In this document: positions 1 through 35,074 of the stretch, piece after piece | How the letters are laid out: every line of letters begins with the position of its first letter | Position numbering within the stretch: the stretch's first letter is position 1 | Source of the DNA: Leucoraja ocellata | Taxonomy: Eukaryota | DNA: 64,000 nt | NCBI GenBank assembly: GCA_036785375.1 | Contig: JAWMAR010000779.1 | Span: forward strand, 558,001 to 622,000 | Reading direction: 5' to 3' | The notes under the pieces: generated by a model | Seen by the model: only the letters and a program-made list of their open reading frames with translations | Databases searched by the model: none | Told to the model about the DNA's origin: nothing | Program-made: the position numbers and the translations under genes

Positions 1-2305
1 AACATTTTGGTCCACTGTTATTTCCTATCCATCTCAAACTTTCCTCAAATCCCTTGGTATCTTGTTTTTCAAAGCCTGTTCTTCCCACTTGTGAAATGGT
101 GGGTATGGGGCAGATCAGTCATACTGTACTTCAGTGAACAAGATATTTGGCCTTGCTGATGATACCTCCCTCACTTTGTGGAGGGAGAAGAAATTGTCAC
201 AATGCTGTGTTGGGCTTGATATTAGTTTACCATAACATGATACGTCAAATTAAATCCTTACAGAAGAAAGACGTTCTGTGGGACTTTGGATTACCTGCCT
301 CCAGAGATGGTTGAAGGACGGATGCATGATGAGCGAGTGGACTTGTGGTCTTTGGGCATTCTGTGTTATGAGTTCCTTGTAGGTCATCCTCCATTTGAAT
401 CTTCAACTCATAAGGATACATATAGAAAGATCTGTAAGGTGAGATGTTATACATAAAATTGTTGAGAAAAGTCAGTCATCTATGCCTTGCAGGCTACTTA
501 CAGGCATGCCTATGTCAGCAATATGTCTGGAGCACTGGCAATCTGTCCTCGACCTATTGTGGTTGAAATTGTAAAGGGATAGCTAATACTTGGATGCCAT
601 TAATAAGACCAAGTTGGTATTTCAACATATAATAAATGTATTCTAATATAAAATGTTTCTAGCTTTGTATTTGTATCCAAATTTCCAGTATCTGTAGTCT
701 ATAATTATTCATGCATGATAACTGAAAATGTTCAATATTGAAATTTATAGGTTGAAGTCCAGTTTCAACCGAGCATGTCAGAAGGTGCAAAGAGTCTAAT
801 CAGCCAATTACTTCGCCATGATCCAGTACTGAGACTTCCCCTCAAGGCTGTGATGGAACATCCATGGGTGAAATCTAATGCCTGCAGACTTCTTCCACCA
901 GAATGTACCAACAGTGAAAATTTACAACTACAGAGGTCCTGAGGATAGCCGACTTGTACTTTAAATGTATATTGAACGTGAACTTTGTAAATTATATGCT
1001 TTTCCTCCATCTGAACCAGTCTTCCTGCATGTTTTAGTCATTATTTGAACTGTATACACTGATATTTAGATTTGTCAGCAAATATATAATGCAAGTCATG
1101 TTTTCTACCCAGTTTTTCCACTTGCTTAAATATTAAAGTGACCTGCATCTGCATTTTGTTTAAACTACATGCCTGTATCATAACCCTTAAACAGTAATTC
1201 AGAACTACCTGGAGTTGACTGTTTGTAGCTAAAGCAATGAAAATGATGCTTTTTTAAAGTTTTTGCATTGATTTGAAAATAAATCTGTTGAATTCTAAAA
1301 CAGTTTATCATTTTGAAGAATTTGAGTATTTACACTTTAATGGCCTAAGGAAATTGATTCTACATCTACACTACAAAGGGGCCTATTCAGAAGCCTAATT
1401 TTAAGAGTTGGGTTCTGAAATATTGACCTGTGTGGCTTGTGAAATAGCAGAGAAGGTCTTTTAACTGTTCCTCCAGTGACAATTGTTTTCAGTCAGTTTA
1501 AATACGTGAAAATTGGGCTGTTAACATTTGCATGTCAAATATCAAAGCATAACAACACTCTTCAGCTGGTTTGAGCCTTGGCTGGAGTGTATTCTGCGAT
1601 TTGATGTCTATTTATCTCAGCTGTATATCCAGACATTTAATTTATTACAAAAATGGGCCAACGTATATTGTTTTTTTCCCCCCTCCAATATTTGTGAAAA
1701 CCCAAATTTAAAAAGCAGAATTTAACTTGTAGTTTGCACAAGGAAAGCAGCACCAAGAATCCAATGATACCTCTGACCTAGATCACAGTACTCAGTTGAA
1801 ACTGGATCTTCTAAAAAAAAAATGCTGAAGGAACCTAGTAGGTCAAACAGAATCCGTGGAAGGAAACAAACAGATGTTCCAGATCAGGACATTTCTTCAT
1901 AGCTAAACCTGTAATGCTTGTGAGGTGGCAGAAGTTCATGCTCAGGGGATGTAAGCTAGGTGATTGATTTTTCCAAAGTTACTACGTGCAAGTATGTCAA
2001 AGAAAGGTCTGAAGTTAAAATGTTTCATGTATCAGAGTAATATCACGTTTACTCCAGCAGCTTTTATTTTATTTAAACACTTTCTTCATAAAGACACCTT
2101 CAGTATAGTTAAATTGATTACATTTTAAGTCTGTAAACAGCAGAATTGTACATCCACACTTGAAGACACCGATAACTTGTGTCAGTAAGACGTGGCTCTT
2201 GTATCAAAGTGTCTGAGAAGCTTTGCATTAGGAGGCGTAGGCAGTTAAAACGTGGTTACACCACTGGACTAAATAAATACAGACATGCTATGATCTAGGG
2301 AAACA
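1..2305 (+). repeat. Segmental tandem duplication unit 1 (right end only)
   Basis: Matches 13531-15945 and 30712-33125, with a 102-bp deletion in intron 7. Confidence 0.95.
264..942 (+). CDS. AURKB: Aurora kinase B, tandem copy 1 (partial: last two coding exons; 5' part lies left of the window)
   Basis: AG/GT-bounded exons 264-438 (175 nt, [58 protein letters not shown]) and 751-942 (VEVQF...[14 protein letters not shown]...QRS*, TGA at 940-942). AATAAA at 1278-1283. Confidence 0.9.
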
Positions 2306-2309
2306 GCAT

Positions 2310-3905
2310 TTGCTGTTCTTCTGCACACTTCTCAGCTGATCAATATCCTGTTATTATTCTTGACTATTTACTGTCTACAATATCACTTATTTTAGCATCA
2401 TCTGCAAATTTACTAACCAGGCCTTGTACATTCTCATCCAAATCATTAATATAACTGACAAACAACAATGGGGCCAACACTGACCCCTGAGGTACACCAC
2501 TAGTCATGGGCCAAGTCTCAAGATGCTTTAACTGAGGAATGATGTAGGCTAGCAAGCAAAGAATTGATTGGAATTTTCAATAGGACATGCAGCAATTTTG
2601 GATGCACCTCAACTTCATGGATCTTCGAACACGAGAGACGTGTCTTGCTGATATCATGCCTAAGAGGTATATGGACCCAGCTGTCATCCACAATCAGTAC
2701 CCCGTTCCTGCCTTATCCCCATATCTTCTGATTCCGATTTTTTTTTAAGAGTCCTATCTAGCTCTTGAAAGCATCCAGAGAACCTGCCTCCACCGCCCTC
2801 CGAGGCAGAGAATTCCACAGACTCGCCACTCTCTGTGAGGAAAAAGTGTTTCCTCGTCTCCGTTCTAAATGGCTTACTCATTCTTAAACTGTGGCCCCTG
2901 GTTCTGGACTCCCCCAACATCAGGAGCATGTTTCCTGCCTCTAGTGTGTCCAAACCCTTAACAATCTTATATGTTTCAATGAGATATTCCTCTCATCCTT
3001 CTAAACTCCAGAGTATACAAGCCCAGCTGCTCCATTCTCTCAGCATATGACAGTCCCGCCATCCCGGGAATTAAACTTGTAAACCTACGCTGCACTCCCT
3101 CAATAGCAAGAATGTCTTTCCGCAAATTAGGCGACCAAAACAGCACACAATACTCCAGGTGTTGTCTCATTAGGCTCTGTACAACTGCAGAAGACCCTCT
3201 TTGCTCCAATATTCGATTCCTCTTGTTATAAAGTCCAACATGCCATTCGCTTTCTTCACTGCCTGCTGTACCTGCATGCTTACTTTCAGTCTGAAGAAGT
3301 GTTTCCGCCCGAAACGTTGCCTATTTCCTTCGCTCCATAGATGCTGCTGCTCCCGCTGAGTTTCTCCAGCATTTTTGTGTACCTTCGATTTTCCAGCATC
3401 TGCAGTTCCTTCTTAAATGCTTAATTTCATAGACTGATGAACAAGGACCCCCAGATCCCGTTGTACTTCCCCTTTTCCCAACTTGATGCAATTTAAATAG
3501 TGTTCTGTTTTTGCTACCAAAGCGGATAACCTCACATTTATCCGCGTTAAACTTAATCTGCCATGCATCTGCCCACTCCCCCAACCTGTCCAAGTCACCG
3601 TGCATTCTCATAGCATTTTCCTCACAGTTCACACTGCCACCCAATTTTGTGTCATCTGCAAATTTGCTAATGTTACTTTGAATCCCTTCATCCAAATCAT
3701 TGATGTATATTGTAAATAGCTGCGGTCCCTGCACCGAGCCTTGCGATACCCGACTAGTCACTGCCTGCCATTCCGAAGGGGACCCTTAAATCCCTACTCT
3801 ATGTTTCCTGTCTGCCAACCACTTCTTTATCCATGTCAGCACTCTACCCCCAATACCATGTGCCCTAATTTTGCCCCCTAATCTCCTGTGGGACCTTATC
3901 AAATG
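2310..3905 (-). mobile_element. Degenerate CR1 LINE fragments (RT C-terminus and 3' tail); duplicated at about 17840-19560
   Basis: Frameshifted RT motifs SGVPQGSVL, YINDLD, SKFADDTK, HLEYC..WSP, and a CR1 3' UTR. Confidence 0.9.
3289..3416 (+). mobile_element. 128-bp Penelope-derived short element with hammerhead-like core, nested in CR1 with a 13-bp TSD (copy at about 18947-19074)
   Basis: Starts GTCTGAAGAAG...CCCGAAACGTT. Flanked by ATGCTTACTTTCA (3276-3288) and ATGCTTAATTTCA (3417-3429). Confidence 0.75.
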
Positions 3906-4315
3906 CAATCTGACACTTTAATAGTCAACAGGTGCAAGGGGAAATTAACTTAGATTTCTGATAACATTGCTGTGCATGTGGATGAGAAATGGGAATGGTC
4001 AAGAACAGATGTTGTCTTGTGATGTGTGAGGAAGCATCTCTGATTGACGCCATCAACCAACAATATTATTATTGTAATATTGTCCAAATTATCATATTAT
4101 TGGCTCACAACCAGTTGATTCAAAACCACTGGATTATCTAGGTAGTAAATAGTAATGGAAACCGAGCTGAAAATTTGAGCCATGATAGAACATGCGCCAT
4201 GATCTTGATGAATTGAACGAAATGTGGAAACAACCGGTTAATGGAGAACAAAGTTACTCGAGGAGCTCCTGTCGTATCTTTGATGGAGACGCGGGAGCCC
4301 GAGGCGCGCCAGCTG

Positions 4316-4465
4316 ATTGGTGGCTTGGTCGCACACACGCACACACACGAGCCAATCGCCAACACGATCGGGTTATCCAATCGGATATGCCGTTACAATT
4401 GGCCAATGGCGGCGGCTTTTAGACTTTGTAGCGAGCCAATTAGGAGACGGCTGTCCGGGTTTGAA
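4316..4465 (+). promoter_or_regulatory. G2/M-type promoter of AURKB copy 2: clustered NF-Y CCAAT boxes plus CHR element
   Basis: ATTGG 4316, CCAAT 4352, CCAAT 4377, ATTGGCCAAT 4398-4407, CCAAT 4436, and TTTGAA 4460-4465 after a GC-rich CDE-like stretch. CpG-rich, TATA-less, about 150 nt before the ATG. Confidence 0.8.
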
Positions 4466-4617
4466 CTGAAGCGGGGCAACGGTCGGAGCTCGAGCGGTGG
4501 AAGAGGTGAGAGAGAGAGAGGGAGAGGGGGAGGGAGGGAGTTACCGATATATACATCGAGGTGCGCCACCTGCGGAGAGGAGCCGAGCCTGGAGCTTGGC
4601 GCTTCGCCCCGGAATCA

Positions 4618-7600
4618 ATGACCTCCAAGGAGAACCACGACCCGCAGGCACCGGGCCTCACTCAGGTGAGGGAGTGGGCCTTTACTGTGAGGGGAGGCGG
4701 GCTGGGAGCCGGGAGATGAATGGAGTGGGGTGCAGAGGAAGACTAGAGCACTGGCGAGCGGGTCGGGGAGTGAGACTGGTGGGGGGTGGGGGCAGTGAGT
4801 AAGGGGCTGGAGGATAGTGGGAGGTGGTGTGATGTGTGGACATTGGGATCGGTGTTCTTATGGAGCTACTTCATTAAGTTCGCTCTCCTCCCTTCCACAG
4901 ACACTGACTTCGATCAGGTTGGGTAGTCCAAAGTATTTGAAGAAACAGTTGAGCGGATCGTGCATTTCTGCATCGTCTTCCATATTGCCTTTGAGAAACA
5001 TGTCCAAAGCTTCTACTGTCGTACCACTGGCAACAGGTATGCAGTGTCAACATGGGAGAGCATGCTAAAGTGTGTGGGAGTTCTGATGATATTAGAAGCC
5101 ATGGGCCCTTTGTGGCACGTTTTTTCAACCTTGTTTTTCAACTTTCCATGCCTATATAAATCCTCAACAATCTCGTGGTCCTTGTTTGAATGAAATCAAT
5201 ATTAGTCAATTATATTATAATCTGGCCAATAATATCTCATAGAAAAGATGTCCAGCTGGAAAGGGTACAGATAAGATTTACGAGGATGTTGCCAGGACTA
5301 GAGGGTCTGAGCTATTGGGAGAGGTTGAGTAGGCTGGGACTCTATTCCTTATTTACTTCCCCCCCCCCCGTTTTTTCTAAAATAGCATGGTTACGCTTAA
5401 CTACGGTTCAATGCCGGAACCATACAGATTAGTGAATTGTTGCTATTAGGGCAGTGTTTTTATATTCCTGGTTCAAGTATTAATTGATTTTAGTGCACAA
5501 TTATTCCCAACAAAGCAAAAGTGCTGGAGAAACTCAGAGGGTGCCGCAGCATCTATGGAGCGAAGGAAATAGGCCACGTTTCGGGCCAAAACCATACTTC
5601 AGACTGATGCAGGGTGGGGGGGCGGGAAGAAGAAATGAAGAGGAGGAGTCAGAGGGCAGCAAGGGTTACCGGAAATTGGAGAAGTCAATTTTCAAGCCGC
5701 TGGGGCAATGTTCTACCCCCAGCGGCTTGAACATTGACTTCTCCAATTTCCGGTAGTCCTTGCTGTCTCCTCCCCTTCCCAGCTCTCCTTTTGGCTCCTC
5801 CTCTTCCTTTCTTCTTCCCGCTCCCCCGCATCAATTAAAGCTGATAAAGCTCGGGATCTCGTCACTGAAACATTTCAACCCAATCCACATCCTGGCATAT
5901 CTGCACCTTCTTCAGTTCCATCATGTTCTTCCAATAATATCGAGAACAGAATTGCATATAGTACTCCAATTATGGCCGAAGCCAAGTTTTATAAAGTCAT
6001 ACTGTGATCTTCATGTTCTTGTATTCCACGTCTTGGCCGATGAAGGCTTGCATAAAGTCATACAGCACGGAAGAAGGCCGTTCAGCCCAACTCATCCATG
6101 CCAAGATGTCCCATCCAATCTAGTCACCTGCGTTTGGCCACATCCCTCTAAACCTTTCCTATCCAAGTCCAAGTGTCTTTTAAATGTTATTGTACCTGCC
6201 TCAACTACCTCCCCTGCCAGCTTATTTCATATCTTCCTCCCCACCCACCCCATCCGAATGTAAAAAGTTGCTCCTTGGGTTTCAATGAAATCTTTCCCCT
6301 CACACCTTAAGCATGCACTGTGATTCCTTTACCCTGGGTACATGATTCTGTGCAATTAATAAATTCCAGTCATGATTTTGTACACCTCCATAAAATCACC
6401 CCTTAAGACTCCTGTGCTCCAAGAAACAAACTCCTAGCTTGCACAATCTCCCCTTATTGCTCAGTCCCTTGGGTGGCAACATCCTCGTCTTCTTGCACTC
6501 TTTCCATCTTATAGACATTCTTCCAAGAGTGGGGTGACAAAAACTGAACTCAATACTTCAAATGTGGCGCATCAGACTCCTGTATATCTATCTGTGCTTC
6601 CATGGCCTTGCATACTCTGCTCATCATACCATTCATGCCCATATCCTACTCTTATCCATACCTTGGAATGTAGGATGTTGAGGGCTGATCTTTGAGATTT
6701 ATAAAACCACGAGGGACATAGGGAGGATGAATGCACTCAGTCTTTTTCCCGGGGTTAGTGAGTCAAGAATTAGAGGGGATAGGTTTCAAGTGAGAGAGGA
6801 AAGATTTAATTGGAATCTGAGGGGCAGAATTTTTGAGACAGAGGGTGGTGAGTAGATGGATAAGCTACCAGAGGAAATAGTTGGACCAGGCACAATAACA
6901 ATTTTTTAAATACATTTGGGAGAGCACAAGGATAGGAAAGGTTTAGAGAAATATGGACCAAATGTGGCAACTGGAACTTGAGTAGGTGGTTGACATGGAT
7001 GAGCTGGAGTGAATGGGGTGGTCCATTGTCGTATTACTCGGTACAAAAAATACTTCTCAATCTGGAACACTGTTTATAGAATACAAGAACAAAATAATCT
7101 GATGCATGTCTTTACAATTTTTCTGTAGCTTTGGGATCGGGAGATCAGAACGTAGCAACAGCACCTGAAACCCAGCAGGTGGTGGTTAAGTAAGTATTAC
7201 AGTTAATCTTGTATTGAGGTGTGATCTCTCTGCTGGATCTGCACTTCTGAAAGCAGTTGAATTAGTGCTATGTAAATTGGTTTGTCCAAAGGACGTGAGG
7301 TCTTGCAAACTGAAGAAGGGTCTCAACCCATTGCTTCTCTCCAGAGATGCTGCTTGTCCCGCTGAGTTACTCCAGCAGTTTGTTGTTTACTGAGATATTG
7401 CAATTTGGAATACATCTCCTATTTTCTTCAATGTACTTATCAAGCTTTGCATAGTGTCTTTCTTCTTCAAAACCACAGGTGATCCGTCATTCTTGCCTTT
7501 CCAGCACATACCTATTGCCGCCAACCATCGCAACCCGTTTCATAGAAGCAATTTCAATAGTAATGCTGCAGTGTAATTCCTGTAGCCTGCAGGCTAAATT

Positions 7601-10600
7601 AGGGGTCTCCAAACTATGGCCCATGGGCCACATCCAGCCCGCAGCAAGCTCTTAACACATTCTGTGCGATGGGCTATAATAACAGGTTCTGTCGTAGCAC
7701 AGGAACATACACGTTAGTTTGCTCTAAACTTTAGAGATACAGCGCGGAAACAGGCCCTTCGTTCGCCCCCACCACCGCCACTAATACTATCCTACACACA
7801 CGCACATACACTAGGGACAATTATACCAGCCCAATTAATCCACAAATCTTCGGTGTATAACCAGCACATGTAGTTCCTTCCTATACAAACCTAGTGTGGG
7901 CGGTAACCGGAGCTCCCAGAGAAAATCCATGCAGGTCACGGGGAGAACGAACAAACTCCGTACAGACAGCGCCCGTATTCAGGAAAGAACCCGACACTCT
8001 GCCGCTATATGGCAGCAAATTAAGACTGCGTCACTGTGCCGCCCAATTATCTTGTACAACTGTAACACAGCTGTTTTTAAAATCCCTCCGATTTTTTTTT
8101 TTTTTTTTACAAAAGGCAGATTTCCCCCTACATTTTGTCTGAGGGGAAAAAAGGGGAAAAGATCAATTATTCACGGACCGATGACCTCGTATTTATTGGG
8201 CCAAAGGGTAAATTATGTTGGAGCAACCATTTGAAAGCTATCATATGGACATGCATTTATTGTAGGTTGGTGTATAAGTGGTGATGTTGTTGCAGATGAA
8301 TGTGTCAAGGCAGTGTTTGTCGAAGATGTTTGTCAGTCTTTACCCTACATATTAATGTGGGAATTTGGGTGCAGAGAAACTAAAATAAAAAGTCGATTGA
8401 AAATAACACGTATGGGAATCGAATCCCCATGGAATATACCACATGCTGAGCAATTTTGCATCAACCCATACAATGCTGTGCCTATACATTGAACTGATCG
8501 CACAGCCACTCGATGTAATATTCCGGATAGAAGTGTTAATTGCTGATGCGCATTCACTCTCACTTTCTTCTTCCACTTGACGGTCACCTAACTACAGAAT
8601 GACGTGCGCTCCATTAATAGGAAATGTCTAGATTGGATATTGTCTTCAGAGCCTTTTAAACATTTATATTTAGAGTAACCCAGGTAAGGCTGCTTCTCCC
8701 GCTTCCATTGGTCACTGTCTGATAGGGTGCCTCACTGCTTCCTCCATCGGGTTTGAATGGAGTTGCCGTGGGTGGGGAGAGAGAGGAGGGCCAGGGTGTT
8801 GGGAAGGCAGGGTTGAGCTGCAACAAACCCTCTCAGTGAGGAACCGGTAAGTGTGTGTGTGTGTATATATGTATATAAATAAATTCAACCGCCCTTTACT
8901 TTAAAGTTTAATCTTGGGTGATGGCTCCAACTATTTGTTTTGAATTTCTTCCATTTGTTTTGCTTACGGCAAGTTCCTTTTTGAGTTCATTAAATTTATA
9001 AAACTGACATTTCTTTATTTTTTCCTACCGCCCCGCAAAAATATATAATGTGGCCCTCGTGCTGAAAAGTTTGGAGGCCCCTGCGTTAAATTAAGGTGGT
9101 CCGTTAAATGTTGGGTGCATCTTTAACTGATCTATCTCCTCGGTTTGGCAGAAAATGTTAGAGGAATAGGATATTCTTTTCATTTTAAGTTTTGTGTGTA
9201 TTTGTGGACTACGCTTATTCCTTTTGCATCCAAATAAATTGTTTCTGGAATGTATTCGTACTTGCAAGTGAAGCTGCACCTGATCAGAATTCTCACTGGC
9301 TTCAACCGTAATGTAGATGCTTAGAAGGTACAGGCATTACCTATAGTTCCAGAGTCGTGCTGAATATGATGCCATTTCTGGTCTTCTCCTATGTACTAGT
9401 ATCCAACTGCATAATAAAGATTAAAATGGGATGAAAGTCCCCACATTCTGAGATTCCCAATCATGTGATGTATTTAAAGCAAATGCCTCTTGTTTTTATC
9501 TCTTCCTCCGTTTATTGTATTTTCTTATCTGAGTCAGTAAGTTTTTATTTTGGATTTACAAAGAAATATTTTAACTTTCAGAAATTGGTGTATTGACAAC
9601 TTTGACATCGGATGCCCTCTTGGGAAAGGAAAATTTGGGAATGTGTACTTGGCTCGTGATCGGGAATCAAGGTTTATTCTGGCACTGAAAGTGCTTTTCA
9701 AGTCCCAGCTTGAGAGCGAAAATGTTGAACATCAACTCCGAAGAGAGATTGAAATTCAATCTCATCTCAGGTAAATTGTCTTTTTTTTAATCCCTTCCCA
9801 TCTTTAGGCTTTCCTTACATCCAGATTTCTCAAGTGCGATTTGGAAATATTGGGTTAGCAGTTGGCGTTCAGACCCTCTGCTGTATTTTGCCATGCAATT
9901 AATTGTGAACTATTAACTCCATTTACCCACTCAGTTCCATTCCATGCCTCATAATTATTCAAAATCTGCTAATTCCATCCTCTGCTGGATGGAATTAGCA
10001 GATTTACTTGTTTGAACCTAAAATGTAAGGATTTGAACATTATTTCCAAAATGTACTTTTGAAAGCATTTGCAAATGAAGAGTAAAATGTCTTGGCATCA
10101 TTGGTGAATTTGAGACCCCTTGTTCTAGCTACATCTGGAAAAATAATTATTTGTGTATTTGTGTTTTTGAATTGTAGTACCAAAACTGGAAATAAATTGT
10201 TAGTTTTTGAATTTCTGTACACTGGATGTTTCATTGCCTTTGAAGATAAAACCTGTAAAACTGGCAAAGTTAATTGAGCCAAAATTATTACCTGCATCTG
10301 AAGAACAGTCCTGACCCAAAACATCACCTATCCTTGGTCTCCATAAATGTGGCCTGATCCACTGAGTTACTCTTTTTTTTTTTTTAAATCACCCGTCAAA
10401 TTGCTTACAGTGGGGATTTGTATTTGATCGATGGCGAACTGGCAAGTGAGTGTCCCCTGAAACAGGCCAGAGTTGATTGGTGGTTTTTAAATAGCAATCT
10501 AATGCGCTTTTCCTTAATTTCAGGCATCCAAATGTCCTACGGCTGTACAACTATTTCCATGATCGTAAAAAAATATACCTAATGTTGGAGTATGCTCCTG

Positions 10601-13600: not shown

Positions 13601-14574
13601 AAAGCCTGTTCTTCCCACTTGTGAAATGGTGGGTATGGGGCAGATCAGTCATACTGTACTTCAGTGAACAAGATATTTGGCCTTGCTGATGATACCTCCC
13701 TCACTTTGTGGAGGGAGAAGAAATTGTCACAATGCTGTGTTGGGCTTGATATTAGTTTACCATAACATGATACGTCAAATTAAATCCTTACAGAAGAAAG
13801 ACGTTCTGTGGGACTTTGGATTACCTGCCTCCAGAGATGGTTGAAGGACGAATGCATGATGAGCGAGTGGACTTGTGGTCTTTGGGCATTCTGTGTTATG
13901 AGTTCCTTGTAGGTCATCCTCCATTTGAATCTTCAACTCATAAGGATACATTTAGAAAGATCTGTAAGGTGAGATGTTATACATAAAATTGTTGAGAAAA
14001 GTCAGTCATCTATGCCTTGCAGGCTACTTACAGGCATGCCTATGTCAGCAATATGTCTGGAGCACTGGCAATCTGTCCTCGACCTATTGTGGTTGAAATT
14101 GTAAAGGGATAGCTAATACTTGGATGCCATTAATAAGACCAAGTTGGTATTTCAACATATAATAAATGTATTCTAATATAAATAGCAAATGCTGGAAACA
14201 CATTGCAGGCCAGACAGCATTTAAATTATTTTCGAGTCTTCAATTTGTAGTTTCTCTTTCCACAAATGTTACACGACTTGCTGAATGTTTCTAGCTTTGT
14301 ATTTGTATCCAAATTTCCAGTATCTGTAGTCTATAATTATTCATGCATGATAACTGAAAATGTTCAATATTGAAATTTATAGGTTGAAGTCCAGTTTCAA
14401 CCGAGCATGTCAGAAGGTGCAAAGAGTCTAATCAGCCAATTACTTCGCCATAATCCAGTACTGAGACTTCCCCTCAAGGCTGTGATGGAACATCCATGGG
14501 TGAAATCTAATGCCTGCAGACTTCTTCCACCAGAATGTACCAACAGTGAAAATTTACAACTACAGAGGTCCTGA
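4618..14574 (+). CDS. AURKB: Aurora kinase B, tandem copy 2 (complete, 8 coding exons, 362 aa)
   Basis: Exons 4618-4665 ([19 protein letters not shown] box), 4901-5036, 7129-7189, 9582-9770 ([16 protein letters not shown]), 10524-10662 ([18 protein letters not shown]), 11796-11944 ([13 protein letters not shown]), 13794-13968 (RRKTFCGT), 14383-14574. All introns are GT-AG with compatible phases; 1089 nt, no stop. Asn and Glu occupy the positions that separate Aurora B from A. AATAAA at 14910-14915. Confidence 0.93.
6050..7040. mobile_element. Old CR1 3' fragments in opposite orientations in AURKB intron 2 (copy at about 22155-23150)
   Basis: Degenerate CR1 3' coding/UTR sequence, minus strand about 6050-6620 and plus strand about 6670-7040. 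Boundaries are approximate. Confidence 0.6.
7600..9083. mobile_element. Non-autonomous hAT (Charlie-like) DNA transposon in AURKB intron 3
   Basis: TIRs TAGGGGTCTCCAAACT (7600-7615) and AGTTTGGAGGCCCCTG (9068-9083), subterminal GGCCC motifs, and degenerate 8-bp TSD GGCTAAAT/CGTTAAAT. Confidence 0.8.
7713..8044 (-). mobile_element. HE1-like tRNA-derived SINE nested in the hAT element (copy at about 23827-24158)
   Basis: Minus strand begins GGGCGGCACAGTG, has central TACGGAGTTTGTTCGTTCTCCCCGTGACC, and a LINE-like tail CCTGTTTCCGCGCTGTATCTCTAAA. Confidence 0.75.
12413..13278 (-). mobile_element. Rex1/Babar-type LINE fragment in AURKB copy 2 intron 6
   Basis: [46 protein letters not shown] motifs, frameshifted. 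Confidence 0.85.
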
Positions 14575-17500: not shown

Positions 17501-17639
17501 AGGCAGTCTTTTTCACAACACACCTTAAATTTGTGCCTTGGATGTTCGCTGTGCTGTGAATGGAGACAACCACCAATGCAGTCCTCCAAGTGGAGCATCA
17601 CTGACATTGTGTTTAGGTGTAACATAGTGTTGCATGTTT

Positions 17640-19973: not shown

Positions 19974-20123
19974 ATTGGTGGCTTGGTCGCACACACGCAC
20001 ACACACGAGCCAATCGCCAACACGATCGGGTTATCCAATCGGATATGCCGTTACAATTGGCCAATGGCGGCGGCTTTTAGACTTTGTAGCGAACCAATTA
20101 GGAGACGGCTGTCCGGGTTTGAA
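19974..20123 (+). promoter_or_regulatory. G2/M-type promoter of AURKB copy 3: CCAAT boxes plus CHR element
   Basis: ATTGG 19974, CCAAT 20010, CCAAT 20035, ATTGGCCAAT 20056-20065, CCAAT 20094, TTTGAA 20118-20123. Confidence 0.8.
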
Positions 20124-20279
20124 CTGAAGCGGGGCAACGGTCGGAGCTCGAGCGGTGGAAGAGGTGAGAGAGAGAGAGAGGGGGAGGGAGGGAGTTACCG
20201 ATATATACATCGAGGTATCGAGGTGCGCCACCTGCGGAGAGGAGCCGAGCCTGGAGCTTGGCGCTTCGCCCCGGAATCA

Positions 20280-23200: not shown

Positions 23201-24958
23201 AAGAACAAAATAATCTGATGCATGTCTTTACAATTTTTCTGTAGCTTTGGGATCTGGAGATCAGAACGTAGCAACAGCACCTGAAACCCAGCAGCTGGTG
23301 GTTAAGTAAGTATTACAGTTAATCTTGTATTGAGGTGTGATCTCTGCTGGATCTGCACTTCTGAAAGCAGTTGAATTACTGCTATGTAAATTGGTTTGTC
23401 CAAAGGACGTGAGGTCTTGCAAACTGAAGAAGGGTCTCAACCCATTGCTTCTCTCCAGAGATGCTGCTTGTCCCGCTGAGTTACTCCAGCAGTTTGTCGT
23501 TTACTGAGATATTGCAATTTGGAATACATCTCCTATTTTCTTCAATGTACTTATCAAGCTTTGCATAGTGTCTTTCTTCTTCAAAACCACAGGTGATCCG
23601 TCATTCTTGCCTTTCCAGCACATACCTATTGCCGCCAACCATCGCAACCCGTTTCATAGAAGCAATTTCAATAGTAATGCTGCAGTGTAATTCCTGTAGC
23701 CTGCAGGCTAAATTAGGGGTCTCCAAACTATGGCCCGTGGGCCACATCCGGCCCGCAGCAAGCTCTTAACACATTCTGTGCGATGGGCTATAATAACAGG
23801 TTCTGTCGTAGCACAGGAACATACACGTTAGTTTGCTCTAAACTTTAGAGATACAGCGCGGAAACAGGCCCTTCGTTCGCCCCCACCACCGCCACTAATA
23901 CTATCCTACACACACGCACATACACTAGGGACAATTATACCAGCCCAACTAATCCACAAATCTTCGGTGTATAACCAGCACATGTAGTTCCTTCCTATAC
24001 AAACCTAGTGTGGGCGGCAACCGGAGCTCCCAGAGAAAATCCATGCAGGTCACGGGGAGAACGAACAAACTCCGTACAGACAGCGCCCGTATTCAGGAAA
24101 GAACCCGGCACTCTGCCGCTATATGGCAGCAAATTAAGACTGCGTCACTGTGCCGCCCAATTATCTTGTACAACTGTAACACAGCTGTTTTTAAAATCCC
24201 TCCGATTTTTTTTTTTTTACAAAAGGCAGATTTCCCCCTACATTTTGTCTGAGGGGAAAAAAGAGGAAAAGATCAATTATTCACGGACCGATGACCTCGT
24301 ATTTATTGGGCCAAAGGGTAAATTATGTTGGAGCAACCTGTTGAAAGCTATCATATGGACATGCATTTATTGTAGGTTGGTGTATAAGTGGTGATGTTGT
24401 TGCAGATGAATGTGTCAAGGCAGTGTTTGTCGAAGATGTTTGTCAGTCTTTACCCTACATATTAATGTGGGAATTTGGGTGCAGAGAAACTAAAATCAAA
24501 AGTCGATTGAAAATAACACGTATGGGAATCGAATCCCCATGGAATATACCACGTGCTGAGCAATTTTGCATCAACCCATACAATGCTGTGCCTATACATT
24601 GAACTGATCGCACAGCCACTCGATGTAATATTCCGGATAGAAGTGTTAATTGCTGATGCGCATTCACTCTCACTTTCTTCTTCCACTTGACGGTCACCTA
24701 ACTACAGAATGACGTGCGCTCCATTAATAGGAAATGTCTAGATTGGATATCGTCTTCAGAGCCTTTTAAACATTTATATTTAGAGTAACCCAGGTAAGGC
24801 TGCTTCTCCCGCTTCCATTGGTCACTGTCTGATAGGGTGCCTCACTGCTTCCTCCATCGGGTTTGAATGGAGTTGCCGTGGGTGGGGAGAGAGAGGAGGG
24901 CCAGGGTGTTGGGAAGGCAGGGTTGAGCTGCAACAAACCCTCTCAGTGAGGAACCGGT

Positions 24959-25005
<47 letters not shown>

Positions 25006-28000
25006 TATAAATAAATTCAACCGCCCTTTACTTTAAAGTTTAATCTTGGTTGATGGCTCCAACTATTTGTTTTGAATTTCTTCCATTTGTTTTGCTTACG
25101 GCAAGTTCCTTTTTGAGTTCATTAAATTTATAAAACTGACATTTCTTTATTTTTTCCTACCGCCCCGCAAAAATATATAATGTGGCCCTCGTGCTGAAAA
25201 GTTTGGAGGCCCCTGCGTTAAATTAAGGTGGTCCGTTAAATGTTGGGTGCATCTTTGACTGATCTATCTCCTCGGTTTGGCAGAAAATGTTAGAGGAATA
25301 GGATATTCTTTTCATTTTAAGTTTTGTGTGTATTTGTGGACTACGCTTATTCCTTTTGCATCCAAATAAATTGTTTCTGGAATGTATTCGTACTTGCAAG
25401 TGAAGCTGCACCTGATCAGAATTCTCACTGGCTTCAACCGTAATGTAGATGCTTAGAAGGTACAGGCATTACCTATAGTTCCAGAGTCGTGCTGAATATG
25501 ATGCCATTTCTGGTCTTCTCCTATGTACTAGTATCCAACTGCATAATAAAGATTAAAATGGGATGAAAGTCCCCACATTCTGAGATTCCCAATCATGTGA
25601 TGTATTTAAAGCAAATGCCTCTTGTTTTTATCTCTTCCTCCGTTTATTGTATTTTCTTATCTGAGTGTCAGTAAGTTTTTATTTTGGATTTACAAAGAAA
25701 TATTTTAACTTTCAGAAATTGGTGTATTGACAACTTTGACATCGGATGCCCTCTTGGGAAAGGAAAATTTGGGAATGTGTACTTGGCTCGTGATCGGGAA
25801 TCAAGGTTTATTCTGGCACTGAAAGTGCTTTTCAAGTCCCAGCTTGAGAGCGAAAATGTTGAACATCAACTCCGAAGAGAGATTGAAATTCAATCTCATC
25901 TCAGGTAAATTGTCTTTTTTTTAATCCCTTCCCATCTTTAGGCTTTCCTTACATCCAGATTTCTCAAGTGCGATTTGGAAATATTGGGTTAGCAATTGGC
26001 GTTCAGACCCTCTGCTGTATTTTGCCATGCAATTAATTGTGAACTATTAACTCCATTTACCCACTCAGTTCCATTCCATGCCTCATAATTATTCAAAATC
26101 TGCTAATTCCATCCTCTGCTGGATGGAATTAGCAGATTTACTTGTTTGAACCTAAAATGTAAGGATTTGAACATTATTTCCAAAATGTACTTTTGAAAGC
26201 ATTTGCAAATGAAGAGTAAAATGTCTTGGCATCATTGGTGAATTTGAGACCCCTTGTTCTAGCTACATCTGGAAAAATAATTATTTGTGTATTTGTGTTT
26301 TTGAATTGTAGTACCAAAACTGGAAATAAATTGTTAGTTTTTGAGTTTCTGTACACTGGATGTTTCATTGCCTTTGAAGATAAAACCTGTAAAACTGGCA
26401 AAGTTAATTGAGCCAAAATTATTACCTGCATCTGAAGAACAGTCCTGACCCAAAACATCACCTATCCTTGGTCTCCATAAATGTGGCCTGATCCACTGAG
26501 TTACTCTTTTTTTTTTTTAAATCACCCGTCAAATTGCTTACAGTGGGGATTTGTATTTGATCGATGGCGAACTGGCAAGTGAGTGTCTCCTGAAACAGGC
26601 CAGAGTTGATTGGTGGTTTTTAAATAGCAATCTAATGCGCTTTTCCTTAATTTCAGGCATCCAAATGTCCTACGGCTGTACAACTATTTCCATGATCGTA
26701 AAAAAATATACCTAATGTTGGAGTATGCTCCTGGAGGAGAGTTGTACAAAGCGCTGCAGAAATGTGGCTGCTTCAGTGAACAGAGGAGTGCCACGGTATG
26801 TGGGAATCAATAAACATTTATTTATGCAAACTAACTGACCATCATTGGATGTTGTATTTGAACAGCTGAATTAACTGAAATTCATCCAGGAGGGCAATGC
26901 TTGCTGTATTTCCCGGCAATGAAGATGCTATTTTTTTACCCAAAAATAATTTACCTGCATCTTGGAGGCCGAAGGTTAGGTTGTTAGCCAAGAAAGATCG
27001 AGTTGGCTATCCCTCATTTCTGGAAGCTGATGGGAAGCAGCTGTAAAAGGACAGCACCGCTGGGGGGGGAGGGGAGTGGAGTGCTGTGGCGAGTGAGTGA
27101 GTTGCTGGCATGATTCCCGACTCCCTCCATCTCAATGGTCCTGCCCGTGCTGACCCGGGCCAGACTCCCCACACGCTGTGAAAGGAACTCTGAACCCAAT
27201 GGGTCTATTGTCATTCAATAAGATCACAACTGATTCTACTTGTCCAGGTGTGCTCCCGGTTTTCCCACCATCTCTCCATCTGCCGTCACCCTCCACTCCC
27301 CACCCATTCAGAATGGAGGAGTTCTGAAAGCCTTGGGCATATTGAATTGTTACTTTATTTATTATTTTTTTTTGAGCATGAGAAATTCTATCTCCCACCA
27401 GCCTTTTTTCAAAATTTAGCAACTCAAAATGGGGGTGAGTCTTCATTGCCAGGAAATACGGTAATTGAATTCTTTAAACTCGCGTTTCTTATTTGTAATA
27501 TCATTCCAATAATTCAGTTTCTTATGTTGTTAATTTTTGGGTAAAATACCAATTCACATAGTAGAACATGGGAATGCTGGAATTTAAACTTCATAATTAA
27601 GCTCAATTGAATGTGCAAAAGTCTAATTAGTTGATGAATCAATTATGTTTGTGACATTTGGAAGGGACTTGGAGGAACTAGTTTGTCTCGACACATGCAT
27701 TGTCATACTCCATGGCCACAATGTACACCCTCCGCGCGTTGCTTCTGATATTTGTACACAATCCATTCCTTCAATCACTGTTATTTCCAATGTGATGACT
27801 GAATATTTGAGTGTTGCCTATCCTGGTCTATGTGGTGTTCTTAACATGTTTATCATTTTCAAAAAGTTGTTTTGCACAAATACCTTCAGGTGGCAGTGAA
27901 GTGATGCTCATTGTTTCCTTTATTCCAGTACATTTTGGAGCTGGCAGATGCATTGCAATATTGTCATTCAAAGAAGGTAATTCATAGAGACATCAAACCA

Positions 28001-31000
28001 GAGAATCTGCTCCTGGGTCTTCGCGGGGAGCTGAAAATAGCTGACTTTGGTTGGTCTGTCCATGCTCCTTCATCAAGGTTTGTGGCGAGTCTCATTTGCT
28101 TTTTTTAAAAAAATATGATATATCCCAAATTATTTCCGTATTTGCTTTATTGAGTCAAAAACCATTACTGTTTTACCTCTAAATGGACATTAACTGGGGA
28201 TGTAATAAAATCCTTTAAAATGGCCATTGGAAATGTAAAATTCCACATATTAGTTTGGAGCCTGAACCCCTCTTGTCTGGTGAATTTACCATCTCCCAGT
28301 GAGAATACTCATTCAGAATACTGAATTGTCAATTGAGAAGAAATTAGGGGATTTATTATGGGGAAAACCTAAGTTTCCAAATGCTAGCTTGTGACCATCT
28401 CCACCGATTGCTTATTATTGATTTAGCTCTTGATTTAGCTCAGCTTGCCCGTTCTCACTCCTGAGTTTTACTTACATTTGGTTCCATCATGGTAAAATGG
28501 AAAGTTTATTTTTCTTAGGAGATTTTCCCTAGGTGGCATGGACTCTAATCCTTGTTTGGCACTGTGTTAAACTTGTAACACTTCACCCATTTGTCAACTG
28601 CAATACTTGCAGCGACATCATTCTGCATCTTTTCTCTTAATAATAATAATAATAATATATTTTATTGTCATTGCACATCAGTGCAACGAGATTTGGTATG
28701 CAGCTTCTAACCGATGTCAGTCAATAAATAAATAGATATATAGATAAATAAACTGTGCGACGTGACCATCTGAGGGAGACAGTCCATGGGGGATGGGGGG
28801 GCACTCATTAGGGCCGGTTCAGAGCCGCTATAGCTCTGGGAATGAAGCTGTTTCTGAGTCTGGAGGTTCGGGCGTAGAAGGCCTTGTAATGTCTGCCGGA
28901 AGGAAGTAGTTCGAACAGTCCATTAAAAGGGTATGGGGAGTCTTTATGGATGCTGACGGCCTTCCTGAGGCACCGTGTGGTAGATGTCCTCCAAGGCTGG
29001 TAGCTGTGTCCCAATAATCCTCTGCGCTCTGTGGACGACGCGCTGAAGAGCTCTCCTCTCCACCTCCGTGCAGCTGAGACACCACACAGATGCCATACGT
29101 TAATATGCTCTCTGTGGTGCAGCGGTAGAAGGTTGTCAGCAGCTGTTGGGGCAGACCAGTCTTTTTTAATGTCCTTCTTGACCAGCGCAGCTGTGTTGGT
29201 GGACCATGTGAGGTCCTCTGAAATGTGAGTGCCCAGAAACCTAAAGCTGGGCACTCTCTCCACACTTTCCCCGTCGATGGAGATTGGGGCGTATTCTCCA
29301 TTATGGGACCTCCTGAAGTCAATAATCAGCTCCTTGGTCTTGGAGGTGTTTAGTGACAAGTTGTTACGTGCGCACCAGTCCGCCAGGTTCTGCACCTCCG
29401 CTCTGTATTTTGTTTCATCACCGTTGGTGATCAGCCCAATCACTGTTGTGTCGTCTGCAAACTTCACAATGGTGTTGGTGTCGAATGCAGGAACACAATC
29501 GTGAGTGAAGAGGGAGTAGAGCATGGGGCTTAGTACACAGCCCTGTGGTGTGCCAGTGCTCAGGGTGATAGTGGAGGACAGGTGCGGGGCCCAGTCTCAC
29601 TGCCTGCGGTCGCTCCGTCAGAAAGTTCAGGATCCAATCGCATATCGGTGAGCTGAGGCCTAGCTGGAGGAGTTTGGTGGGGATGACCGTATTGAATGCA
29701 GAGCTATAGTCAATGAAGAGCATTCTTACGTACGTGCCCTGTCTATCCAGGTGAGTCAGGACAGTGTGAAGAGCCAGAGAGATGGCATCCTCTGTCGATC
29801 TATTTGCCCTGTATGCAAATTGATGAGAATCCAGTGAAGGCAGGGATGCTGGATTTGATGTGGGAGAGGACCAGCCTTTCGAAGCACTTCATTGGTATTG
29901 GAGTTAGGGCAACCAGGTGGTAGTCATTCAGGTACTTGGGGAGCGTTGCCAGAGATAGAGACACATTAAAGATTCTAGTGAATACCGCCACCAGCTGTGC
30001 AGCACAGTCCTTTAGTGCCCTTCCCTGGACTCCCATCTGGGCCTGCAGCCTTGCGTGGATTGATCGTATGCAGGGTGCACTGTACCTCCTGAGTGCTCAG
30101 TGTTAAGGCCTGTCCCTCCGCCATGGCCGGGTAGTACGTTGTAGTAAGTGATGTCCCTGACACCCTGCCACATGCTTCTGGTGTCCGTGGTATTGAAGTG
30201 GTCTTCCACCCTTTGCCTGTGGATGTCTTTGGCCTTTTTAATATCTTTGCTCAGGTTCGACCTGGCAGCACTGTAGGCAGAAGTGTCCCTGGATTTAAAG
30301 GCATTGTTGCGTGCCCTTAGCAGATTCTGAACCTCCTTGTTCATCCAGGGTTTTCGGTCTGGGAACATCTTTATTTGCTTGTCCACTGTGACAGTCTCCA
30401 CACAGCAGTTGATGTAGGAGAGCACAGTGGATGTGTACTCCTCCAAGTCTACCTCTGTGGAAATTACTCCAAACTCACTTCTGTTGCTTAATAGTTCCTC
30501 GCCTGCCTTATCTTTACAAAGTATAGCCTTTCCAATACATTACAATAATTGGATACTCGGTTGTAGGGGACTACGTCTATTATCCATGTGCTCTGGTCTC
30601 TAGTAGCTTCTCTTCCAAAGAGTAACCTTCATCCTTCTGTTTAATTCCTTCCAGAACTTTTTTCCACTCATTCTGTGGCCTTCTGCTTTGCATGTTTTCT
30701 GAATTGTAATCAGCATTTTGGTCCACTGTTATTTCCTATCCATCTCAAACTTTCCTCAAATCCCTTGGTATCTTGTTTTTCAAAGCCTGTTCTTCCCACT
30801 TGTGAAATGGTGGGTATGGGGCAGATCAGTCATACTGTACTTCAGTGAACAAGATATTTGGCCTTGCTGATGATACCTCCCTCACTTTGTGGAGGGAGAA
30901 GAAATTGTCACAATGCTGTGTTGGGCTTGATATTAGTTTACCATAACATGATACGTCAAATTAAATCCTTACAGAAGAAAGACGTTCTGTGGGACTTTGG

Positions 31001-31755
31001 ATTACCTGCCTCCAGAGATGGTTGAAGGACGAATGCATGATGAGCGAGTGGACTTGTGGTCTTTGGGCATTCTGTGTTATGAGTTCCTTGTAGGTCATCC
31101 TCCATTTGAATCTTCAACTCATGAGGATACATATAGAAAGATCTGTAAGGTGAGATGTTATACATAAAATTGTTGAGAAAAGTCAGTCATCTATGCCTTG
31201 CAGGCTACTTACAGGCATGCCTATGTCAGCAATATGTCTGGAGCACTGGCAATCTGTCCTCGACCTATTGTGGTTGAAATTGTAAAGGGATAGCTAATAC
31301 TTGGATGCCATTAATAAGACCAAGTTGGTATTTCAACATATAATAAATGTATTCTAATATAAATAGCAAATGCTGGAAACACATTGCAGGCCAGACAGCA
31401 TTTAAATTATTTTCGAGTCTTCAATTTGTAGTTTCTCTTTCCACAAATGTTACACGACTTGCTGAATGTTTCTAGCTTTGTATTTGTATCCAAATTTCCA
31501 GTATCTGTAGTCTATAATTATTCATGCATGATAACTGAAAATGTTCAATATTGAAATTTATAGGTTGAAGTCCAGTTTCAACCGAGCATGTCAGAAGGTG
31601 CAAAGAGTCTAATCAGCCAATTACTTCGCCATAATCCAGTACTGAGACTTCCCCTCAAGGCTGTGATAGAACATCCATGGGTGAAATCTAATGCCTGCAG
31701 ACTTCTTCCACCAGAATGTACCAACAGTGAAAATTTACAACTACAGAGGTCCTGA
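20280..31755 (+). CDS. AURKB: Aurora kinase B, tandem copy 3 (complete, 8 coding exons, 362 aa; adjoins RABEP1)
   Basis: Exons 20280-20327 ([16 protein letters not shown]), 20939-21074, 23245-23305, 25716-25904, 26657-26795, 27929-28077, 30975-31149, 31564-31755. GT-AG introns and an open frame. AATAAA at 32091-32096. Confidence 0.93.
20475..20861 (+). mobile_element. Young 5'-truncated Rex1/Babar-type LINE insertion private to AURKB copy 3 intron 1
   Basis: Open C-terminal ORF ...[17 protein letters not shown]...[15 protein letters not shown], then AATAAA and a (CTTGA)n tail. TGGA lies on both sides; empty site at 4808-4811. Confidence 0.85.
21581..21938 (-). mobile_element. Penelope-derived element with internal inversion and a 13-bp TSD (left-truncated copy at about 5516-5832)
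   Basis: Flanked by perfect AATTAAAGCTGAT at 21568-21580 and 21939-21951. Same family sequence as 3289-3416 in reverse, plus a fold-back arm. Confidence 0.75.
23714..25215. mobile_element. Non-autonomous hAT (Charlie-like) transposon, unit-3 copy
   Basis: Same TIRs as 7600-9083. The internal (GT)n is longer. Confidence 0.8.
24961..24996 (+). repeat. (GT)n microsatellite, longer than its paralogue at 8851-8864
   Basis: About 18 units versus about 7 units. Confidence 0.9.
28640..30456 (-). mobile_element. Rex1/Babar-type LINE (5'-truncated, with 3' end) in AURKB copy 3 intron 6
   Basis: RT motifs including [25 protein letters not shown] and [14 protein letters not shown], followed by AATAAA and a (TTA)n tail at about 28640. 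Confidence 0.88.
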
Positions 31756-32864
31756 GGATAACCGACTTGTACTTTAAATGTATATTGAACGTGAACTTTG
31801 TAAATTATATGCTTTTCCTCCATCTGAACCAGTCTTCCTGCATGTTTTAGTCATTATTTGAACTGTATACACTGATATTTAGATTTGTCAGCAAATATAT
31901 AATGCAAGTCATGTTTTCTACCCAGTTTTTCCACTTGCTTAAATATTAAAGTGACCTGCATCTGCATTTTGTTTAAACTACATGCCTGTATCATAACCCT
32001 TAAACAGTAATTCAGAACTACCTGGAGTTGACTGTTTGTAGCTAAAGCAATGAAAATGATGCTTTTTTAAAGTTTTTGCATTGATTTGCAAATAAATCTG
32101 TTGAATTCTAAAACAGTTTATCATTTTGAAGAATTTGAGTATTTACACTTTAATGGCCTAAGGAAATTGATTCTACATCTACATCTACACTACAAAGGGG
32201 CCTATTCAGAAGCCTAATTTTAAGAGTTGGGTTCTGAAATATTGACCTGTGTGGCTTGTGAAATAGCAGAGAAGGTCTTTTAACTATTCCTCCAGTGACA
32301 ATTGTTTTCAGTCAGTTTAAATACGTGAAAATTGGGCTGTTAACATTTGCATGTCAAATATCAAAGCATAACAACACTCTTCAGCTGGTTTGAGCCTTGG
32401 CTGGAGTGTATTCTGCGATTTGATGTCTATTTATCTCAGCTGTATATCCAGACATTTAATTTATTACAAAAATGGGCCAACGTATATTGTTTTTTTCCCC
32501 CCTCCAATATTTGTGAAAACCCAAATTTAAAAAGCAGAATTTAACTTGTAGTTTGCACAAGGAAAGCAGCACCAAGAATCCAATGATACCTCTGACCTAG
32601 ATCACAGTACTCAGTTGAAACTGGATCTTCTAAAAAAAAAAAAATGCTGAAGGAACCTAGTAGGTCAAACAGAATCCGTGGAAGGAAACAAACAGATGTT
32701 CCAGATCACGACATTTCTTCATAGCTAAACCTGTAATGCTTGTGAGGTGGCAGAAGTTCATGCTCAGGGGATGTAAGCTAGGTGATTGATTTTTCCAAAG
32801 TTACTACGTGCAAGTATGTCAAAGAAAGGTCTGAAGTTAAAATGTTTCATGTGTCAGAATAATA

Positions 32865-35074
32865 TCACGTTTACTCCAGCAGCTTTTATTTTATTTAAAC
32901 ACTTTCTTCATAAAGACACCTTCAGTATAGTTAAATTGATTACATTTTAAGTCTGTAAACAGCAGAATTGTACATCCACACTTGAAGACACCGATAACTT
33001 GTGTCAGTAAGACGTGGCTCTTGTATCAAAGTGTCTGAGAAGCTTTGCATTAGGAGGCGTAGGCAGTTAAAACGTGGTTACACCACTGGACTAAATAAAT
33101 ACAGACATGCTATGATCTAGGGAAACGGCACATGATAGTCCCAACAATGGACAAAGGAATATGGAAACGTATCACCTTTTTCCCTCTGCACTTTTGCACT
33201 GTACTTTATTACTGCCAGGATTTCATGTTGCTTAATCAGCCACAACTGATCAATGCTTTAAAGTCAATTCTGATAAGAGGAACTATATATACATATAATT
33301 TTAAAACTGCAGACAATATCTTCTGGTTCAATTGGCCAGTCAGGTCATACATACCATATTTAGATCAGGGTTCAAATGGGAGTGCCCGAGGCATCCAATT
33401 TTATAATACTGTACTAGTTTTCTATTTAAAGCAAGTGCTGAGGGACACAGAGTAAGGAATCTAAATTTATGGTAAATTTGCTGTTTTAAGAGGCTTAAAT
33501 GAAAAGTTCATGGATACATGTTAAAACAATGCATAATTATTTTCTTAAATGTTCATCTACAAATATTTTGGTAGAAATAGAATGAGTTTTCAAAATGTCT
33601 GAAATTGCAAACCATTTAATTGGCTGATCTATTGTTCCCTTAATCCAAACCTCTCAACATGATTTAATGGAATTATGTGCAACCTTACCTCTCTGCAATG
33701 ACTGTGCTGGCATACACTGCTATTTGCTTACTGTCAGGGTCTTCAACAGATTACAATTCTAGAATGTCTCAGCCAAACACAACAACCTCTGCACCATGTT
33801 TCAAACAGCTTTTTCCTGCTAGTGGCAAAAAGCCACCAAGTCTCCAAATGCTGCACAGTGCTAAAGGAAATAGTTCAGTAACTTCTCATTGGGCTGAGTT
33901 TAAACTAAATGTTCTGGGAACAAAACTAATCCACAGACCAAGGCAACCAGTGACCAAGTGTAGGAATCCTTGTAGGAATCTTGGGTAATATTCAAATAAT
34001 TGCTAAAAGATGTCAAATTATAAAAGAAATGTGCTTGGAAAATTGATATATGTGTGTGAGGACAATGACTATATAATCTTCAAGGTAGTCCAACATTTCT
34101 CAAATGAATACTCCACATCTCCAAGTTCCATTCTTCAAAAGGCAGTTACGAAAAGGCAAGAGAGATTTTATTATTAGTCATCCCATTCGGAAACAGCTTC
34201 ATACGTTTAGACACCAACAATATGAAGAACATAACCAACTGATTCCAATGCTAATTTTGGTTTTAATTGGTGATAATGAATTTTTTAAATGTTCAGTTCA
34301 AAATGCATTATTTGGAAACCTGACCACTGTAGTTAGCTTTAATATGGATCAACTTTTATCTTCAGTTTAAAGGTGAATCAACTGTTTCTTGCTTTTTTTT
34401 TTAAGATAATGAACATTAGTTATATAGATTTTGTTCAACTGTCCCTTTCAATTAAACTTGTGGTGCAGCGAGTAACTCTATATGCACTTCACAACTCACA
34501 AGAGCAATGCAAAACTTGCAGGGGATGCAAGTACAATAAATAATGATTTAACAGAAGCTGGATAATGGTGGCAAGGATTAGTAAGATCATAAATTTCCCA
34601 AATTCCAGCATCAGTACCATTAAAAGAAAGACCAATTAAACAAATATGTTTACAATTTTGAGAATGAAAGAGTGAGCTAGACATTGAGGATGATGCTGTT
34701 TTAGTGTGCATGTACAAATGGATTCAACAATGGTTTTAAAAGCAGAGCAAGAGGTTAGATGTGTCAACTCCATCGACTGGGAATTCTTGTATCAATGATT
34801 TTTTTTTCAAAGTTTAAGCACAGCATACACTCGAGATCTCATTATATCTTAAATTTAAAATTTCAATAGTGTTCCCCTTTTGAATTTCACTTGAGTTGGG
34901 AAGCTCTAACTGCAGTCAAAGTCAATCTAGAAACATTTACACCTCAGTTACTGCACACTATTAATCCATGAACTCTGTTCCCTCAGAGTTAAATAAGAAT
35001 TAAAATGTTTCTACAAAGACAAATGTCTGGTCTAGTAAAAACTGTTGCAGCCTTGAAATCGCCAGGGTTTAATG
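32865..35074 (-). other. RABEP1: Probable RABEP1 3' UTR
   Basis: AT-rich stretch with no obvious interspersed repeats, running from the stop codon to tandem minus-strand AATAAA signals at 32885-32895. The 3' end is inferred. Confidence 0.6.
32885..32895 (-). terminator. Putative RABEP1 polyadenylation signal (tandem AATAAA); duplicated near 2063-2073 and 15704-15714
   Basis: + strand TTTATTTTATT equals two overlapping AATAAA on the - strand. Confidence 0.55.

Follow-up and report, generated by a model that had tools for sequence, protein, structure and literature searches.

Head-to-tail Aurora-B/C kinase genes in a skate genome assembly: a plausible young tandem amplification

The 64,000-nucleotide stretch of DNA analysed here, hereafter the window, spans positions 558,001 to 622,000 of contig JAWMAR010000779.1 in the Leucoraja ocellata assembly GCA_036785375.1 and carries repeated copies of AURKB, the gene of the kinase Aurora B. 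Self-BLAST of the window revealed three plus-strand units arranged head to tail with 97.6-99.7% identity. Copy A (1..2305) is cut by the left edge of the window, beyond which its left part lies, and shows only exon 7 (264-438) and exon 8 (751-942), across which its reading frame stays open; N323D and a 102-bp deletion in intron 7 are private to it. Copy B (2306..17459; 15,154 bp) and copy C (17460..34639; 17,180 bp) are complete units, each with a promoter, eight coding exons and an intact open reading frame (ORF) of 362 amino acids (aa). Exon 7 starts at 264, 13794 and 30975 in the three copies, which gives offsets of 13530 and 17181 bp; these offsets, the three head-to-tail units, the completeness of B and C and the continuation of the array past the left edge had all been correctly read in an earlier annotation of this DNA, the original prediction. 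Copy C runs unbroken into the 3' end of RABEP1 and, judged by this continuity, probably occupies the ancestral position. A stretch of 505 bp (17460..17964) found only ahead of copy C would be either the native upstream flank or an insertion at the junction. The units are joined without an N gap, the count of N being 0 in all 64,000 bases, although gaps already filled by the assembler would be invisible to such a count. Scanning of the whole window for other genes within the unit gave no Rfam match at gathering score and no tRNA.

The coding sequence of copy B (4618..14574, plus strand) consists of exons 4618-4665, 4901-5036, 7129-7189, 9582-9770, 10524-10662, 11796-11944, 13794-13968 and 14383-14574, and that of copy C (20280..31755, plus strand) of exons 20280-20327, 20939-21074, 23245-23305, 25716-25904, 26657-26795, 27929-28077, 30975-31149 and 31564-31755. 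In both copies, all seven introns are of the GT-AG type and the ORF ends in a single terminal stop, in line with the two open genes predicted earlier; the splice contexts are the same, and an upstream ATG is absent from both 5' leaders. The catalytic motifs (G-loop, ALK, HRD, DFG and the activation-loop T) are intact in B and C, and the KEN motif is also retained. At residue 152 both read LYNYF, whereas 7 of 12 Aurora A rows read LYGYF, the pattern being unmatched in the other five. The choice of N or G in LY(N/G)YF bears on whether INCENP or TPX2 is bound. The gene model agrees with the RefSeq protein XP_055513793.1 (362 aa) of the little skate L. erinacea, from which B differs at 4 residues and C at 6.

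In a 40-row kinase tree without a mammalian Aurora C row, B and C grouped with Leucoraja (99/97), within a vertebrate Aurora-B/C clade (100/99) that is separate from Aurora A. Among named proteins, the closest come from L. erinacea and Amblyraja radiata, and the two products are 98-99% identical to L. erinacea AURKB. The predicted identity of the genes as Aurora B, the host as a cartilaginous fish (a Leucoraja-like skate by tree and closest proteins) and the independence of the duplication from mammalian Aurora C thus hold. Four Logan records of 381-401 aa, on contigs of 1.5-1.7 kb, agree with the exon model plus 19 codons upstream of the ATG and probably represent spliced transcripts; the Logan record P0015 has copy C's 8-bp leader segment, which is absent from B. 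The expected single-copy state of relatives was also borne out, since one apparent AURKB gene is listed in 22 of the 23 chondrichthyan species seen, although collapsed or unannotated copies would be invisible in such gene listings; L. erinacea, Amblyraja and Rhinoraja have one listed gene each. An N-terminal homology search (5 matches among 85 candidates) yielded no further skate paralogues, and ten more clusters of non-mammalian Aurora proteins contained no clear multi-locus species among the members listed (15 of 21 in one cluster). The sawshark Pristiophorus japonicus has two full-length Aurora-BC proteins (UPI00398F15D9 and UPI00398F7450), 11 of 363 residues apart, which are sisters in the tree and possibly reflect an independent elasmobranch duplication or a haplotig.

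Side observations on the family also emerged. R93C, just before the glycine-rich loop, occurs in all three skate genera, and R344C in Leucoraja and Amblyraja (exons 9582-9770 and 14383-14574). Exon 3 (7129-7189) encodes QRV in most of the fetched shark and ray proteins and QNV in skates, a motif that we take to be a possible A-box degron. The Aurora model of Caretta caretta also carries PF14995, probably through an annotation fusion with a neighbouring gene.

We placed the promoters by motif layout. The copy B promoter (4316..4465, plus strand) lies in a CpG island and has six CCAAT/ATTGG boxes at 4316-4440 and a TTTGAA of CHR (cell cycle genes homology region) type at 4460; the copy C promoter (19974..20123, plus strand) likewise has six CCAAT/ATTGG boxes, with TTTGAA at 20118. 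Each promoter thus packs its six boxes into 125 bp with the TTTGAA 20 bp downstream, a density with a Poisson probability of 1e-5 per 160-bp segment, and the two are the only CpG-island-like, CCAAT-dense spots of the window. Late-cell-cycle genes including Aurkb have TTTGAA as their CHR element, usually with CCAAT boxes upstream (PMC4176359). Both promoters keep this somatic, G2/M-type layout. The core promoters of B and C differ by one substitution in 317 aligned bases plus two short indels, and their 3' untranslated regions (UTRs) by 0 substitutions in 361 bp. An AATAAA follows each stop, at 1278 in A, 14910 in B and 32091 in C, in agreement with the polyA signals predicted; taken alone the hexamer is weak evidence, as it occurs 125 times in the window. 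Because the CCAAT/CHR promoter, the KEN motif and the catalytic motifs are kept, transcription of both B and C at G2/M is to be expected in dividing cells.

The two junctions of the array differ in structure. At the A|B junction (2301..2308), the donors share an exact 4-bp microhomology, AAAC, and agree at 7 of 8 bases; in 200,000 random junctions drawn in the same flanks, a microhomology of at least 4 bp arose with a frequency of 0.019 and agreement at 7 of 8 bases with 0.003, which suggests that microhomology-mediated repair may have made this join. The B|C junction (17459..17460) is gap-free, and its surrounding sequence has no other repeat match in the window; its microhomology is not scorable without the native left flank. 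The A|B junction equals the B|C junction region minus 15946-17963 (2,018 bp), plus one substitution at the join. The breakpoints of the original prediction, 2305/2306 and 17459/17460, are therefore correct, with the refinement that they are two different junctions, one derivable from the region of the other. As to a repeat-mediated origin, we set it aside in a limited test in which neither flank matched a repeat elsewhere in the window.

These features are best explained, in our view and with moderate confidence, as a real, young tandem amplification of a single Aurora-B/C gene, with at least three redundant copies on one chromosome under relaxed selection. That more than one copy truly lies on at least one haplotype we judge very probable, and that three or more lie on one haplotype we judge likely. 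A non-homologous break would first have brought the 3' flank of RABEP1 against the upstream flank of AURKB, creating the B|C junction. Unequal crossing-over may then have expanded and partly homogenised the units, and a later microhomology-mediated event may have made the second junction, either by the loss of 2,018 bp across a junction or by a second nested duplication. One tract that such crossing-over may have homogenised is the tail of copy B (15586..17459), which is the same as the copy C tail (32767-34639) save one base in a T run: over these last 1,874 bp of B the comparison with C gives 0 substitutions, 10 being expected (permutation P = 0.0055, in a test that presumes an even rate, which alleles need not have).

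Over 15,076 aligned columns, B and C differ by 71 substitutions (0.47%), 46 of them transitions and 25 transversions, and by 20 indels, five of which exceed 50 bp when the 505-bp start of C is counted. Such a ratio, with no frameshifts, is unlike read errors. Within the 2.3 kb common to all three copies, unique substitutions number 7 in A (plus 1 at the junction), 4 in B and 4 in C, the three versions being about equally far apart. A diploid animal with three versions must have two loci or more; the earlier claim that they cannot all be alleles of one locus stands to this extent, while three copies per haplotype, which it overstated, are not proven. The divergence can neither date the duplication, predicted to be young, nor exclude alleles because it is lower than the heterozygosity of L. 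erinacea, 1.56% (PMC10115646). Dating was attempted and rejected: at the epaulette shark rate of 7e-10 per generation (PMC10587355), 0.47% would take about 3.4 million generations, which is a ceiling only, given allelic variation and conversion.

In the coding sequence, B and C are separated by 6 nonsynonymous changes and 1 synonymous change, and A contributes one more of each; the non-coding rate predicts 3.6 nonsynonymous and 1.4 synonymous changes between B and C under neutrality. The probability of at least 6 nonsynonymous changes among 7 is 0.007 at a ratio of nonsynonymous to synonymous rates (omega) of 0.2, 0.028 at 0.3, 0.11 at 0.5 and 0.36 at 1, the background omega being assumed and not taken from skate coding sequences. 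With skates as outgroup, T2S, L14F, V79L and M334I are private to C, Y294F to B and N323D to A; three of the four residues of C lie in the regulatory N-terminal tail. The 6 residues between B and C compare with 0-1 between four little-skate-type records and the L. erinacea reference. These are mild replacements: in Xenopus Aurora B, 294 and 323 are both H, and I334 is usual in rays. These coding changes would fit relaxed constraint on redundant copies rather than positive selection.

The consequences of additional copies depend on INCENP, which Aurora B needs for its activity (PMC9606593). When Aurora B alone is in at least two-fold excess in cultured cells, the kinase is less active and mitotic defects arise that INCENP rescues (PMC9606593), in support of the dosage sensitivity claimed earlier. 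The products of B and C would compete for the same INCENP. Extra copies should accordingly contribute little and may do slight harm, because the activity of Aurora B requires this partner; unless INCENP rises as well, they would be neutral to mildly harmful, in keeping with drift and eventual silencing or loss. The array is thus most likely a copy-number variant or a young array on its way to silencing or loss.

Several points weigh against a real, young array of redundant copies. The tandem arrangement is known here from assembled sequence alone, and the copy divergence, lying below the heterozygosity of the little skate, is within the allelic range. Some false duplications are joined gap-free by unsupported sequence (PMC9516828), and the identical 1.87-kb tail is a place where the assembler could have switched haplotypes. 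The omega test stands on only 7 changes and an assumed background, with P = 0.11 at an omega of 0.5, and skate AURKB evolves faster than that of rays and sharks, with 39 differences between Leucoraja and Rhinoraja. Of the seven amino-acid variants, K291 alone recurs among the 9 skate records (in P0014), the other six being absent; no copy can be tied to a transcript because the copy-private residues are absent from all nine. Finally, overexpressing Aurora B jointly with INCENP raises activity (PMC12172992), so the outcome of a higher dose depends on INCENP co-expression.

The two different junctions, the allelic-range divergence and the unchanged tail of B would also be expected if the duplication were real and its count inflated, with two copies per haplotype (A-B on one, B'-C on the other) and a haplotype switch by the assembler inside B. 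The nested form of the junctions, in which a single microhomology deletion suffices to derive one from the other, speaks against this, as does the continuation of the array off the left edge, where more copies may exist, and the homogenised tail is equally a product of unequal crossover or gene conversion. We regard an inflated count as unlikely. Less probable still is a wholly false duplication, in which alleles and error-laden or mis-joined sequence were set in tandem and each haplotype of the animal has a single gene. In most cases a gap lies between false duplicates, which typically show half depth, discordant reads and one-copy k-mers, and in long-read assemblies they lie mostly on the same scaffold (PMC9516828). 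The shared scaffold, the high heterozygosity of a close relative, the single gene of relatives and the lack of an exact match to B or C among the retrieved records all agree with such an artefact. In contrast, no assembly gap separates the copies, three distinct versions are present, two gap-free novel junctions, one with microhomology, would both need to be chimeric, and the nonsynonymous excess is hard to obtain from alleles of an essential single-copy gene.

Among the window copies and the little-skate-type records, all four combinations of K/R161 with K/E291 are found, which implies that little-skate-type animals have shared variation, recombination or a collapsed array. This pattern, together with the long AURKB branches of skates, would be accommodated by an older array, skate-wide or Leucoraja-wide, that was kept for dosage, homogenised by conversion and collapsed in reference assemblies; the consensus polishing and haplotig purging applied to the little-skate assembly (PMC10115646) could have collapsed an array of 99.5% identity. 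Yet L. erinacea, Amblyraja and Rhinoraja each list a single gene, shared variants are also expected under high heterozygosity, and retention for dosage sits poorly with the lower activity of Aurora B in excess over INCENP (PMC9606593). We therefore hold an older array to be very unlikely.

Two retroelement pieces distinguish the introns of B and C. A fragment of 387 bp resembling the 3' end of a long interspersed nuclear element (LINE; 20471..20857, plus strand) lies in intron 1 of C only, in sense orientation 144 bp below the exon-1 donor; it is flanked by TGGA, has a short-repeat tail and carries an AATAAA at 20835. Its LINE label comes from 45% identity over 53 residues to a reverse-transcriptase (RVT_1) element of intron 6, and the insert itself had no Pfam match. 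The intron-6 element is the second piece, a retroelement part of 1,101 bp (28544..29644, minus strand) that is antisense to the gene, retained in C and missing in B. The hexamer at 20835, supplied by the LINE-like fragment, is the first sense AATAAA downstream of the C promoter and could dampen copy C or cause premature polyadenylation, a weak lead given how common the hexamer is in these introns.

The fresh LINE fragment near the C promoter and the four private residues of C, mostly in the N-terminal tail, would be the marks to expect if the array were fixed and expressed and copy C were diverging towards germline use, as an incipient paralogue convergent with mammalian Aurora C. Precedents exist, since mammalian Aurora C arose by duplication of an Aurora-BC gene (PMC524484) and rodent Aurora C is under positive selection (PMC10292211). 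Regulatory divergence of the Aurora C kind, however, is not seen: in their regulatory sequence B and C differ only by the promoter substitution, the two short indels and the intron-1 LINE fragment, the CCAAT/CHR promoters are near-identical, and the 3' UTRs carry no substitution. KEN is kept in both, and the proportion of nonsynonymous changes is what neutrality would allow (P = 0.36 at an omega of 1). The germline-specialised paralogue of the original prediction thus finds no backing in two near-identical core promoters of somatic layout, and we rate a germline-bound copy C as the least probable of the accounts considered here. If it were true, an Aurora C-like paralogue would have originated in vertebrates a second time, seen here while still at 99.5% identity, and the sawshark pair might be another instance.

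A young tandem amplification of redundant copies, the reading we prefer, belongs to a known class of event and affects an unusual gene. Aurora-BC is single in non-mammalian vertebrates and duplicated in mammals (PMC524484, PMC6146527). The skate copies share with non-mammalian Aurora-BC (L. erinacea XP_055513793.1; Xenopus Aurora B-A, PDB 4b8m) the clade, the length of 362 aa, the N of LYNYF and the catalytic motifs, but the skate assembly holds at least three tandem copies where 22 of 23 chondrichthyan species list one gene. The same ancestral gene was duplicated to give mammalian AURKB and AURKC; that pair, however, is old, lies on separate chromosomes and has a germline-restricted C (PMC524484, PMC6146527), whereas the skate copies are in tandem, 99.5% identical and under near-identical cell-cycle promoters. 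The sawshark pair, likewise from an elasmobranch with two full-length Aurora-BC models, is independent of the skate array and known from protein models alone, and a tunicate has two Auroras of its own (PMC10733467). In its head-to-tail order at >99% identity, junction microhomology, homogenised tract and relaxed coding constraint, the array resembles young tandem segmental duplications and copy-number variants, and also look-alike false duplications (PMC9516828); it departs from the usual ones in that the gene encodes an essential, dosage-sensitive chromosomal passenger subunit. In the literature searched, mostly outside the subscription journals, tandem arrays of AURKB were not described for any cartilaginous fish, and PMC9605692 does not mention Aurora.

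Young tandem duplications are common, but here the gene is that of a kinase that, in two-fold excess in cultured cells, becomes less active and makes chromosomes unstable unless INCENP rises (PMC9606593). If confirmed, the array would allow a test in nature of how an animal copes with a surplus of one chromosomal-passenger subunit, and of the first step on the path to Aurora C in mammals; if refuted, it would be a cautionary case of false gene gain. With copy-specific single-nucleotide polymorphisms, at coding positions 4, 40, 871, 881 and 1002, both the dosage and the Aurora C questions can be tested directly in a skate closely related to the laboratory model.

To the right of the array lie the last two coding exons of RABEP1 (35075..36900, minus strand), with the stop at 35075-35077 and the gene extending rightwards. 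The penultimate exon matches Pfam Rab5-bind (E 2e-17), while the last exon gave no meaningful Pfam match; PDB 1tu3 also supports the assignment to RABEP1. AURKB and RABEP1 stand tail to tail (33128-34639, with 15947-17459 in copy B), the array ending 436 bp beyond the RABEP1 stop, on the opposite strand. The breakpoint probably falls within the RABEP1 3' UTR because the first opposite-strand AATAAA past that stop, at 34167, is inside the unit; RABEP1 itself retains its own end. What is probably the distal RABEP1 3' UTR is present a second time, as an orphan, in the tail of copy B; copy A does not have it. A run of 26 G (35322-35347) lies in the last RABEP1 intron.

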